Positions 7,285 to 20,212 of a stretch of 64,000 nucleotides of DNA are shown piece by piece. The notes under the pieces are model-generated. The model did no database searches and had not been told where the DNA came from. It saw only the letters and a program-made list of their open reading frames with translations. The stretch spans positions 5,828,001-5,892,000 of the forward strand of contig OX597822.1 of NCBI GenBank assembly GCA_951406725.2, written 5' to 3'. The first letter of the stretch is position 1, and every line of letters starts with the position of its first letter. The position numbers were made by a program, and so were the translations under genes. This DNA is from Octopus vulgaris (lineage: Eukaryota).

Positions 7285-7544
7285 TAGATAATAAATAGAT
7301 AACAGAAAGATAGATAGTTAGATAGATAATTAGATAGATAGATAGTTAGATAGATAGATAGAGGGATAGATAGATAGATGGATAGATAGATAGATAGATA
7401 GATAGATAGATAGATAGATAGATAGATAGATAGATAGAGGGATAGATAGATAGATAGATAGATAGATAGATAGATAGATAGATAGATAGATAGATAGATA
7501 GATAGATAGATAGATAGATGGATAGATAGATAGATAGATAGATA
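7285..7544. repeat. (GATA)n microsatellite abutting the 3' end of Tx1 element 1
   Basis: Direct inspection. Confidence 0.95.
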
Positions 7545-7841
7545 ACATTTTATTGTAGCCACACAGGGCTAAACACAGAATAAAAATGGACGAAATACAA
7601 TGTAGAATTTTTTTCTTTTCGAGGTGGGATGGGTGGGGAAAAAAAAAAAAAAAAAAACGTTTGATCAATAGGGATCTGTGGGTTGTGTGGTGTATAAAAA
7701 AGCAATATGTATATATATATAAGGTTCACAGTTTAGGTGTAGCCTTGGAAAGAAAAACCTACAAAAAAGACCAAGGTCACCTCAGGCAATTCGAAAAAGA
7801 ACACATGAGTAAGTCGCCTTACTTCTCGTTGTCTCTTTTGG

Positions 7842-10800
7842 TTACAGATTTATGCTTAAAATAGTGTCGTCTTTCATACTGACCATTTTTGCCACTTTTA
7901 CCCACTTTTTATTAAAACATTCGTTCGACAAAGTCTTCCTCTCTATTCTCATCCTCCTTTTCAAGTGGTACTTGAAAAAGTTGACGAGAGACTGACCAGA
8001 GAGGAAGGTGTTTGTTTGCAGTCCTTTCAAACGCGTCCACCACACACATTCTTTCGCCATAGCCATCAGCGTAACGAAAACAGTTTTCCCTTCCCATTTA
8101 AAGGAAGGTGGTGGAACAATATTCACGATAGACTCGGCCGATAGGCGAGCCTGACCTACACGTGACAACAGCTGTTCGACGAAGGACCACAGCTCTGAAA
8201 TATCTGGACACTGCACGAGTGCGTGCAGAACGGTTTCGTCGCTCTGACCGCATCTCGGGCAGGTCGGTCCGGTGATGGTTTTCGAACCGTGTCTGTAGCT
8301 CTTCTCTCGAACAGGTAGTGCGTCTCGATAGCACTGCCAAGCCAGGGATTTCTGGAAGTTATCCATAGGCCCCGGCCCGAACGTCGTCCTGAACAGGCGG
8401 GTTAGGAATTCTTCGTCGACGCCCAGGTTTGCCCCGAGTGTGTCGTCGGACCTCCCCTCCACTAGTCCTCTATAGAACGCTTTAGTCGTTTGTAAGTTGC
8501 ACAAGTTTGACCCCGGTCGGCAGAGCTGCTGTAGAGCTTGGCGACACTCTCGGTGCCAATCGCCCAGTTTCGGTCTCTTTTTGATCCACGTTTGCAGTTC
8601 GGTCAGTGAGACGAGCTGCGGGAAGTCGCGCCTCACAAACGGCGCCCACACCTGTTCACCGTCGTCGATGAATTTCCAGAGATGTCGCAGTCTCAGCGCA
8701 TGCCTGCGCATCATCAACCACGGCATGCCCAGTCCTCCATTCAACGGATGTTGACAGCAAATGGACTTCCTCACCATCGGAACGCCACCCTTCCACAGGA
8801 AGCGGAAGAGTATGCGTTCCAGTTTGGTGATGGTGGCGTCGGGACAAGGTACGACGGTCAGGCGGTAATCGATGACGGATGCGATGTACGCGTTCGCCAC
8901 CTCCGCCCGGCCTTTTAGAGACAGCTTTCTCTCGGCCCATGTTTGGCTGAGAGCGACCACTCTACTCGTGATCTCGTCCCAGTTCTTATCCATTTGGAGG
9001 TCCGGACTGAACCAGACCCCGAGCAATTTAACCGGTCCGTCCGTCCAGCGTCCCACTACTGAGCCGCAGTCGGACGGCATGGGCTTGCTTCTCCAGGTGC
9101 CGAGTAGCAAACCCACTGACTTTTCCGGGTTAATCTTTGCTCCCGTCACCGTTTCGTATTTTCTTAGTGTCTCGCCTATCATCTTGATGTGTTTGTCGCT
9201 CGACACTATGACGGTGACATCGTCCGCATATGCCGACACGCTCGTCTCGCAACCCAGTTCCCGTGGGATGCCCCTCAGTGTCGCCAGCTTCCGCAGTAGC
9301 GGCTCGAGAGTCAATACATACAGAAGCGCCGACAGGGGACACCCCTGACGGACCGAACGCGTGATGTCAAACGGTTTCGACAGGTGACCGTTCACCCGAA
9401 TCACCGATCGGATGCCGCTATACAAGGCAGCGATCCAACCGCGGAAGACGGGACCGAAGCCAGCCGCCCTGAGGACGGCCGCCAAGTACCGATGGTCGAC
9501 CCTATCGAAGGCTTTAGACTGATCCAAATTTATCAGCGCCCCACCCATGCCAGGATCCTTAACTACCCTGTCCACAATGTAGCGCATCAGATGGAGGTTG
9601 TCATGTATGGTTCTGCCCGGCACGGCGCATGTTTGCGCCCTGTCGACCAGTTTACCAATGACAAGCGCCAACCTCTCGGCTATTACTTTGGCCAAAATTT
9701 TCAAATCTGCGTTGAGCAGAGTGATGGGCCTGAAATTATCTATAAAATTCCCCTTGTTTGAGTCTTTCTTCAGCAACGTCACTGCACCTCGGCTCACGAA
9801 ACTGGGGATTCTCCCGTTTTGTTGCCAGTTGCAGTAGACTGATGCCAAGAGGTCGCCAAACAAGTCTGGCATTCGACAATACAGCTCGTAGGGTAAACCA
9901 TCCAATCCAGGCGACTTATCCCTCGCGCAGCCCGCCATCGCATCCCACACGTCAGCGGCTGTGATGGGACTTTCACAACACTCCGCTTCTCTTGCCGAGA
10001 GCCGCGGCAGGTCGGTCAGGTAGGCACTGAAATCCATCCCGCGTTCCGACCCACCACTCGCACCAAACAGTCGAGCAAAGTGCTGTTGAAAGGCCTCACA
10101 CATCCTTTCGGGTTTGAGTAAACTGCATCCCTGTTGATCTATTAGAGACCGAATGGTTGATCTGTTGCCACGCTGCGCCTCCGCTACCCGGGCCTCTCGC
10201 GCAGCTTCAATCCCTTCGTTCCTTAAGGCACGCATTTTAGCTCTGACGACGCAACCTTCGTGCTTGGCGTTGAGGTGTTGGTCGAGGGCCATCCTCGCAG
10301 CCAGCACGTTGGTTGCGCTGCCAGTGGTAAGTGCCTCTTCTAGTTTCTTAACTAAGTCTCCCTCTACTCTATTTCGTTCTATCGCTAATTCCTTGCTAAA
10401 CCTAATTGATTCCGATTTTATTGCCATTTTCAGGGCGTACCACCAGCGGTTGTTAACGACCGCTCCCGTCAGCGCCCTCTTAATTAACTCGCTAATCCGG
10501 TTCCTGTAAACCTGTCGCACTAACAGCGACGTGTTCAGTTTCCAGTAACCGGGACCCTGCCTATGTGTTTTATCTAAGTCGAGCGTACACATAACAAATT
10601 TGTGATCTGTGTAGCTGACTATTTTAAATTGTGGACATCCTACACTATCCCTATCCGCTGTCCTGCATAGAATTCTATCTAGATAAGATCTCGACGATCC
10701 GACGCGGTTTGTCCAAGTCCACGTTGGCACGTTCGGATGGTCGAGTCGGAACCTGTCAGACAAATGGAAACGTCTGAGCAGGTCTTTGAGGCTCTTACAC

Positions 10801-19491: not shown

Positions 19492-19897
19492 GGTGTTGGT
19501 GGTGGTGGTGGACTCACTGATGGTGTTGACGGTGCTTGGCCTTGCGACCTTTGTTTTGTATTTGTTGCTGTTGATGGTGGTGGAGTTGTCAGGTTCGGCG
19601 TATGCTAACAGAGCATCCTATTTTTCTGTTTGTGCGTCACGCTTGACTTGCAACTCAGCCTCGTGGTGGCCAGTGGCCATTTTGGAAATAAAATGGCTAA
19701 ATGAAACCACGAAGGCTATGAGAATTTTTTCTTTTAAATTTTGCCCACAAGGGGCAAAATTTTGTGTCGATATTTATCAAAGGTTTACAGTGGATGTTGT
19801 TACACAACTTTTAAGCACAAAATGTTTGTCAATATACACTTTTAAATAGTCAAAATAAATGATTACCTTCGGAGCTGAAACGACATCACATCCGTCA

Positions 19898-20212
19898 GAG
19901 ATAGATAGATAGATAGATAGATAGATAGATAGATAGATAGATAGATAGATAGATAGATAGATAGATAGATAGATAGATAGATAGATAGATAGATAGATAG
20001 ATAGATAGATAGATAGATAGATAGACAGACAGAGAGACAGATAGATAGATAGATAGATAGATAGATAGATAGATAGATAGATAGATAGATAGATAGATGG
20101 ATAGATAGATAGATAGATGGATAGATAGATAGATGGATAGATGGATAGATGGATGGATAGATAGATAGATGGATAGATGGATAGATGGATAGATAGATAG
20201 ATAGATAGGGAT
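19898..20212. repeat. (GATA)n/(GATG) microsatellite at the 5' end of element 2
   Basis: Direct inspection. Confidence 0.95.

Follow-up and report, generated by a model that had tools for sequence, protein, structure and literature searches.

A family of long interspersed nuclear elements (LINEs) in Octopus vulgaris uses pre-existing (GATA)n microsatellites near-exclusively as insertion sites, with orientation and phase fixed, throughout the 2.8 Gb genome. The analysis started from a window of 64,000 nucleotides (nt) on contig OX597822.1 (assembly GCA_951406725.2, positions 5,828,001 to 5,892,000; G000:C9:5828001-5892000, other contigs being labelled C1, C10 and C21), in which two such elements, termed A and B, are stacked head to tail. 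The family prefers this target, joins it in a fixed 3' phase without a poly(A) or TATC tail of its own, is young, retains intact copies and forms rows by independent serial insertions. Taken as a whole, the picture of a young, multi-subfamily L1/Tx1-type LINE that enters (GATA)n in one orientation and phase, likely through a nick in the GATA strand and reverse transcription primed through UAUC units, is one we regard as quite probable.

In the window, both LINEs lie on the minus strand and, according to Tandem Repeats Finder (TRF), are enclosed by three (GATA)n tracts without strand assignment: one downstream of A (7232..7544, 78.8 copies, TATC on the element strand), one between the 3' end of B and the 5' end of A (13424..13725, 75.8 copies) and one upstream of B (19899..20208, 77.5 copies). 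The order is thus tract, A, tract, B, tract. Element A (7545..13423) is a full-length L1/Tx1-type LINE of subfamily A, 1.5-2.6% from seven other full-length A copies, and element B (13726..19898) is a full-length member of the very young subfamily B, 0.2-0.7% from six other full-length B copies. The conserved 3' tail of A (7545..7572, minus strand) comprises a small hairpin motif, AATAAA, 4 nt and the TATC junction; that of B (13726..13754, minus strand) comprises the hairpin motif, AATAAA, 7 nt and TATC. At the 3' junctions, A ends in CTACAATAAAATGT and B in AATAAAAGAAAGT, both continue directly into TATCTATC without poly(A), and each 5' end lies directly behind TATC repeats. The conserved 5' head of A, which contains the CCGAAGGTAATC motif (13369..13423, minus strand), is 94% identical to that of B. 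The second open reading frames (ORF2) of A and B are 81% identical at the nucleotide level, and the elements otherwise have little in common beyond this 48-nt head and the 3' end (69% over 136 nt). In intact relatives, ORF2 is 80% and ORF1 34% identical in amino acids (over 336 aa), so the window pair is not a duplication. An earlier note on this sequence had described two full-length elements of the same orientation between GATA tracts, with 3' joins in the same phase, no poly(A) and TATC before both 5' ends, and had taken them for independent insertions rather than a segmental duplication; the TRF and alignment coordinates, the junctions and the intact relatives bear this out. Its further statement that ORF1 and the untranslated regions are strongly diverged holds for ORF1 and fails for the termini.

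The same junctions recur across the genome. Among 60 fetched copies (the window's two included), the sequence behind the 3' end begins with TATCT in 59 and with GATCT in one, and genome-wide TATCT stands 8-14 nt past the exact tail motif in 8,775 of 9,987 cases (87.9%). A reversed control pattern had no match in the genome, and the TATCT match is therefore not due to chance. At the 5' ends of the 60 fetched copies, TATC is found within 70 nt in 59 and (TC)n in one. Heads on the reverse strand, each counted once, have TCTATCT upstream in 189/195 cases (97%) genome-wide; the forward-strand figure was set aside, since multiple starts inflate it. Kojima (2015; PMC4494074) treats a LINE as target-specific when one sequence type makes up more than 20% of its flanks; here, the proportion is 88% at 3' ends and 97% at countable heads.

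Truncated and off-target copies distinguish a target from a tail. Ninety loci were picked by their 3' ends only, and the 30 with a 5' break inside the locus were scored, the remaining 60 having extended past the locus or fused with an adjacent copy. TATC is present at the break in 27 of the 30 5'-truncated copies, no more than 6 nt away in 25 of them; the three misses are an inversion (L083) and two copies without TATC at either end (L158 and L166). Microhomology at the truncation points was 0-2 nt in six junctions and uninformative. Off target, the full-length B copy L181 is flanked by (TC)n and (AAGC)n, has a 3' end that is 13 nt short and carries no TATC. The 3' ends of two further off-target copies, L166 and L167, continue into (CA)n/(TA)n, that of L167 into (TA)n, without a TATC tail. 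TATC on the 5' side of truncated copies, together with the absence of a tail on off-target copies, implies that GATA is the target and not a tail. The proposal of the earlier note that the lineage targets (GATA)n is thus upheld by 3' ends, heads and truncated breaks alike. The tabulation of flanks and phase at both termini that it suggested gives a fixed phase and orientation genome-wide, the opposite of the predominantly non-GATA 5' flanks or random phase that it had listed as contrary evidence. Two full-length heads (L096/L181 and L271) are found off target behind (TC)n, the target of Kibi.

The termini suggest how insertion may proceed. Among 87 distinct heads, degenerate remnants of the repeat ahead of the head recur in unlinked copies (CTCTCTCTATT in five, ATCTCT in four and CTCTGTCTAT in four), which points to a transcript start in the upstream tract; transcription may begin in or just past the upstream TATC repeats. 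AATAAA ends 4, 7 and 6 nt before the element ends of A, B and C, respectively. Cleavage for polyadenylation normally takes place 10-30 nt downstream of AATAAA and would hence fall inside the downstream tract, whereby the RNA would keep a few read-through UAUC units at its 3' end. The APE domain would nick the GATA strand, and the UAUC units could then pair with the freed target end, which would fix the phase and allow reverse transcription to skip the poly(A). Each insertion would split the tract in two, the halves would regrow by slippage, and permissive loci would gather rows. (GATA)n may act as a safe harbour. A precedent comes from SART1Bm and R1Bm, for which base pairing between the end of the RNA and its target has been proposed to make priming accurate (PMC7265360).

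Several points weigh against this account. TATCT is missing from the expected place in 1,212 of the 9,987 tails (12%), which genome-wide form a mixed class of decayed repeats and true off-target insertions. The nick and the pairing are likely but candidate steps read from sequence, and junctions within a repeat cannot give the nick position. The 3' tracts of different copies have no early interruptions in common, so that a repeat carried by the RNA leaves no direct trace there. The 3' tail hairpin folds no better than shuffled sequences (z about 0 in three single-sequence folds), and a conserved stable 3' hairpin was dropped as a candidate because its folding energy is at the shuffle level. 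In addition, a second copy lies directly behind the 3' tract in 39 of 88 copies (44%; the window's two dropped), compared with 2 of 30 control tracts (7%; Fisher p = 1.1e-4) chosen by a fixed non-element prefix plus ten pure units. Tract length by itself accounts for part of this excess only (length-biased mean of the controls 194 nt, against a mean of 137 nt). The split-and-regrow step is incomplete in this respect, and the stacking must owe something to permissive regions or to selection elsewhere as well.

Specificity could instead reside wholly in an APE endonuclease that reads GATA repeats, RNA pairing being unneeded. This is the standard view for Tx1, Kibi and Koshi (PMC4494074, PMC3812793), and phase and orientation are indeed fixed across at least four subfamilies with different last bases; we regard it as a credible alternative, if not the favoured one. 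What speaks against it comes from two relatives with other targets. The first is an older sister LINE, represented in the window by a fragment at 45772..46990 (plus strand) that is 68-70% identical to A/B; other copies end in (ATT)n. Copies of this family are 84-90% alike, and it groups with A, B and C in the reverse transcriptase (RT) tree (92/86). The homologous tail was reached in 22 of 25 loci, and ATT-type repeats, in some cases 2-3 units only, come next in all 22 and TATC in none (judged by eye). ATT-type repeats are found at about 10 of 22 resolved 5' breaks and not at 12, so specificity is weaker or decayed. The hairpin loop of the endonuclease can govern target specificity, yet that of the sister family is almost the same as that of B (WANRIGSSRS in L286, WSNRIGSSRS in B), a comparison of the loop only, among decayed sister copies. 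Two members of the sister family (L232-L255, L286-L304), L287 and L288, have the same internal deletions, which suggests a non-autonomous derivative.

The second relative is a short interspersed nuclear element (SINE) whose last ~45 nt are homologous to the LINE tail; the window copy (4040..4255, minus strand) is 86% identical over 43 nt to the 3' end of B. The SINE is tRNA-like (class assigned by eye) and about 226 nt long, and its exact tail occurs 74,930 times genome-wide. Despite the homologous tail, it sits at other TAT-containing sites: TATC is near 0 of 30 positional and 2 of 53 full-length copies. Duplications of 9-19 nt flank 14 of the 53 full-length copies, and TAT falls in the first 6 nt of 10 of these 14, compared with a background of 17%, an excess that may be inflated by overlap with the SINE's own end. 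It is possible, judging from the tail, that the LINE lineage is the partner of this SINE; another LINE with the same tail could serve. Behind 28 of the 53 full-length copies there is an internal piece of the same SINE, which results in head-to-tail series that repeat every ~184 nt.

These relatives raise a further, rather doubtful possibility, namely that target choice is RNA-guided and heritable: a loose endonuclease would cut near TAT, and repeat units derived from the flank would pick the target. If so, one machinery would lie behind the GATA families, their (ATT)n sister and a SINE of ~75,000 copies at GGTAT-like sites. A single off-target master copy would then suffice for a change of target, the protein staying as it is.

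Rows of copies are common in this family. Among the first 100 tails on C1, neighbours within 7 kb lie on the same strand in 19 cases and on opposite strands in two. A row on C21 at about 1524800-1560600 (L416, L197-L199, L417) contains eight abutting copies of three subfamilies in about 36 kb, and one on C10 contains six. The C21 neighbours are not mutually closest: unlinked copies resemble them at least as much as the adjoining ones do, which means that rows are built up through separate insertions. Spacers between the young C21 copies are pure, uniform TATC of 88-148 nt, similar to the bulk of the controls (median 110), and such lengths would fit regrowth of the tract by slippage after each split. 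By a very rough extrapolation from 6 in 267 kb, the genome holds ~63,000 GATA tracts. The window stack is therefore an ordinary two-copy row for this family: the head-to-tail arrangement pointed out in the earlier note is confirmed, and it is commonplace in this genome.

It is improbable that whole stacks are propagated together, whether B-TATC-A is co-retrotransposed by read-through or duplicated as DNA. The order B then A does recur (in the window, on C10 and twice on C21), and two C21 units have a common head variant. However, within the C21 row the two A copies differ by 0.85%, whereas the second of them is 0.37-0.48% from unlinked copies; the two B copies differ by 0.66%, no nearer than to others; and heads differ among the window, L033 and L059. 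This comparison covered the C21 row, the C10 row and the window.

Serial insertion into existing tracts also has to be set against the view, raised as an alternative in the earlier note, that the element itself produces TATC as its tail. LINEs with 3' tandem repeats do so, and copies would then land randomly or in older tails. Each young 3' end does start in one phase, and tracts behind elements are longer than controls (medians 246 and 212 vs 110 nt). Nevertheless, GATA tracts between stacked copies can be as short as 5-17 nt, which indicates that no long tail is added by the element, and there is no element upstream of the 5' tract for 41 of 60 full-length copies. With the TATC-flanked truncated copies and the tail-less off-target copies described above, this view is rejected as very improbable. 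The class of LINEs with self-made 3' tandem tails was likewise set aside for this family, which has repeat flanks on both sides and off-target copies without the repeat. That the window tandem is a misassembly across GATA tracts is hardly credible: the tracts are repetitive and homopolymer frameshifts hint at consensus errors, but the ~300-nt tracts have private interruptions, the 10 kb on either side of the window lack any copy, and the family-level result is independent of this locus.

The exact 3' tail motif, with 9,987 occurrences, corresponds to ~10,000 copies, and the A/B-type 5' head occurs 358 times genome-wide; in the terminus searches, the best 40 of 573-984 candidates were scored and 30 loci were fetched per search. 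At least four tail types can be distinguished, A, B, C (ending in AAAGAAACA) and D (ending in AAAGAAACT). Seven full-length B copies are 0.10-0.79% apart and eight full-length A copies 0.6-2.9%; the family is young, B especially. Between 62 and 75% of the words sampled from B are present in 19 public runs, which bear three different organism labels. Several head variants, that of B among them, are joined to A-type bodies, and the head of subfamily C is different; the window A head (13369-13427) looks like a hybrid of two variants (heads of L031-L060 and L256-L285 compared). The sharing of head variants across subfamilies suggests that 5' ends may be swapped. Two copies (L083 and L016) are 5'-inverted, as expected from twin priming.

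The two-ORF layout, with an N-terminal APE and a central RT in ORF2, is that of a LINE of the L1/Tx1 group. In the window, ORF2 of A (7842..11290) and of B (14036..17471), both on the minus strand, match APE, RT and zf-RVT in Pfam, and ORF1 of A (11348..13224) and of B (17892..19680), also on the minus strand, each contain a CCHC zinc knuckle (E 0.014 and 0.00075, respectively, both below cut-off). As assembled, the frames are broken by single-base changes: one frameshift near 11064 in A ORF2, indels in A ORF1, frameshifts near 16620 and 14132 in B ORF2 and one near 18538 in B ORF1. All but one of these lie in homopolymer runs, which suggests consensus errors in the assembly. The break near 16620 is also seen in two of six other B copies, and contigs from 4/4 public runs examined have the in-frame base at both B ORF2 breaks, a result that concerns the family and not the window copy. 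Among 14 full-length copies fetched, both frames are open in two B-type copies, L185 and L186 (ORF2 1145 aa, ORF1 594-595 aa), and intact A-type ORF1 (626-628 aa, L190 and L191) and ORF2 are located in separate copies. PF03372 and PF00078 score above cut-off in the intact copies L186 and L189, and PF13966 above it in L186 and just under it in L189. Alignment read against the L1 endonuclease shows that A, B and C all have the catalytic residues of APE. In ORF1 of the intact copies, Pfam gives one zf-CCHC match (E 0.002, below cut-off) and no RRM match; type I ORF1 with a CCHC knuckle and/or RRM is typical of Tx1 (PMC5203782).

Elsewhere in the window, TATC-type tracts at 59048-59168 and 61433-61558 have no element match and are empty potential targets. 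An open frame at 56574-57191 (minus strand) has a weak FLYWCH zinc-finger match (E 1.5e-4, below cut-off) and may be what remains of a DNA transposon. Rfam had no match in the window.

What appears to be new here is (GATA)n as a target; microsatellite-specific LINEs are already known, for example from fish, and this is not a new system. ACAY, AC, TC, TTC and TAA are listed as LINE repeat targets in the available text of PMC3812793, GATA not among them, and among the targets of Tx1 elements are (TC)n, (TTC)n, (TTCC)n and (TTTC)n (PMC4494074). The text of PMC4494074, as far as available, mentions neither GATA nor TATC, and its Fig. 3 of Tx1 targets could include GATA. Eighty L1-Tx1 families, 13 of them recently active with 421 insertions, have been reported in O. 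vulgaris (PMC13282606), a set that may well include the GATA families; the available main text of that paper mentions neither GATA nor a target, and one supplement neither GATA nor TATC nor target. A literature search pairing Tx1 or retrotransposon with GATA terms found no report, with Repbase and Dfam outside its scope, and a prior description in these databases is conceivable, though we think it rather unlikely. The findings add (GATA)n and a mollusc lineage to the microsatellite-specific LINEs, with ~10,000 copies, intact members and rows of more than 30 kb. In one genome, the GATA families, the ATT family and the SINE are related and yet differ in target, so that the basis of target choice, endonuclease or RNA-DNA pairing, becomes testable; its mechanism is described as not well understood (PMC3812793). 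The results also suggest which LINE lineage could be the partner of a highly abundant SINE, and imply that GATA markers in octopus may often have repetitive or polymorphic flanks.

In phmmer searches at the same Z, B ORF2 scores 328 bits against Xenopus Tx1 (P14381; 29% identity over 902 aa), 322-373 against four fish proteins and 210 against human L1. The closest named ORF2 homolog is from Argonauta hians (69%). In an RT tree of 49 rows, a clade with 100/100 support unites the octopod sequences with Argonauta and nine environmental proteins and excludes every vertebrate sequence. This tree is not resolved at its base, contains no L1 sequence and has a sole outgroup on a very long branch. There is no grouping with any fish sequence, the fish rows BAC82605.1 and BAC82609.1 being without family assignment. 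Environmental proteins P0004-P0084 (ENA/JGI) show 42-53% identity, and the nine in the tree are the sister group of the octopod lineage. A metagenome scan gave distant relatives only (79 of 80 at 25-33%, one at 42%), and the ESM Atlas only generic APE-RT clusters. The lineage belongs broadly to the L1/Tx1 group and may or may not fall inside the Tx1 clade proper. The earlier note's assignment to Tx1 is accordingly sound insofar as ORF2 is nearer to Tx1 than to L1, and goes beyond the tree as to the clade itself; the RT tree yields an octopod clade and does not show a link to Kibi or Koshi.

Several known systems resemble the octopus family in part. SART1Bm and R1Bm of the R1 clade, Dong, Waldo and Mino are likewise repeat-specific LINEs, with different clades and targets; SART1 retains a poly(A) tail, which the octopus family lacks, and Dong targets (TAA)n (PMC3812793), comparable to the (ATT)n of the octopus sister family. 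Xenopus Tx1 is the best-characterised relative among those compared, by its ORF2 (P14381), but is not the sister group in the RT tree; it targets a DNA transposon (PMC4494074), and its ORF2 is 1308 aa long, compared with 1145-1149 aa in octopus. Tetranucleotide targets are also used in crocodilians, by Tx1 families of (TTCC)n or (TTTC)n repeats (PMC4494074), although crocodilian Tx1 and Tx1-Mar use pyrimidine tracts or a Mariner element rather than (GATA)n. Tx1-Mar with SINEU offers a parallel in that a SINE is linked to a Tx1 family and tandem copies arise by sequential insertion (PMC4494074). SINEU, however, has its partner's target, whereas the octopus SINE has the 3' tail of the LINE and not its target, and Tx1-Mar copies are 85-87% identical to their consensus, whereas the octopus families, 0.1-3% apart, are far younger. 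Kibi and Koshi, the teleost Tx1 elements in (TC)n and (TTC)n, are, like the octopus family, APE-type two-ORF LINEs of the L1/Tx1 group with microsatellite specificity (PMC4494074, PMC3812793), and differ from it by target, which in octopus is (GATA)n.

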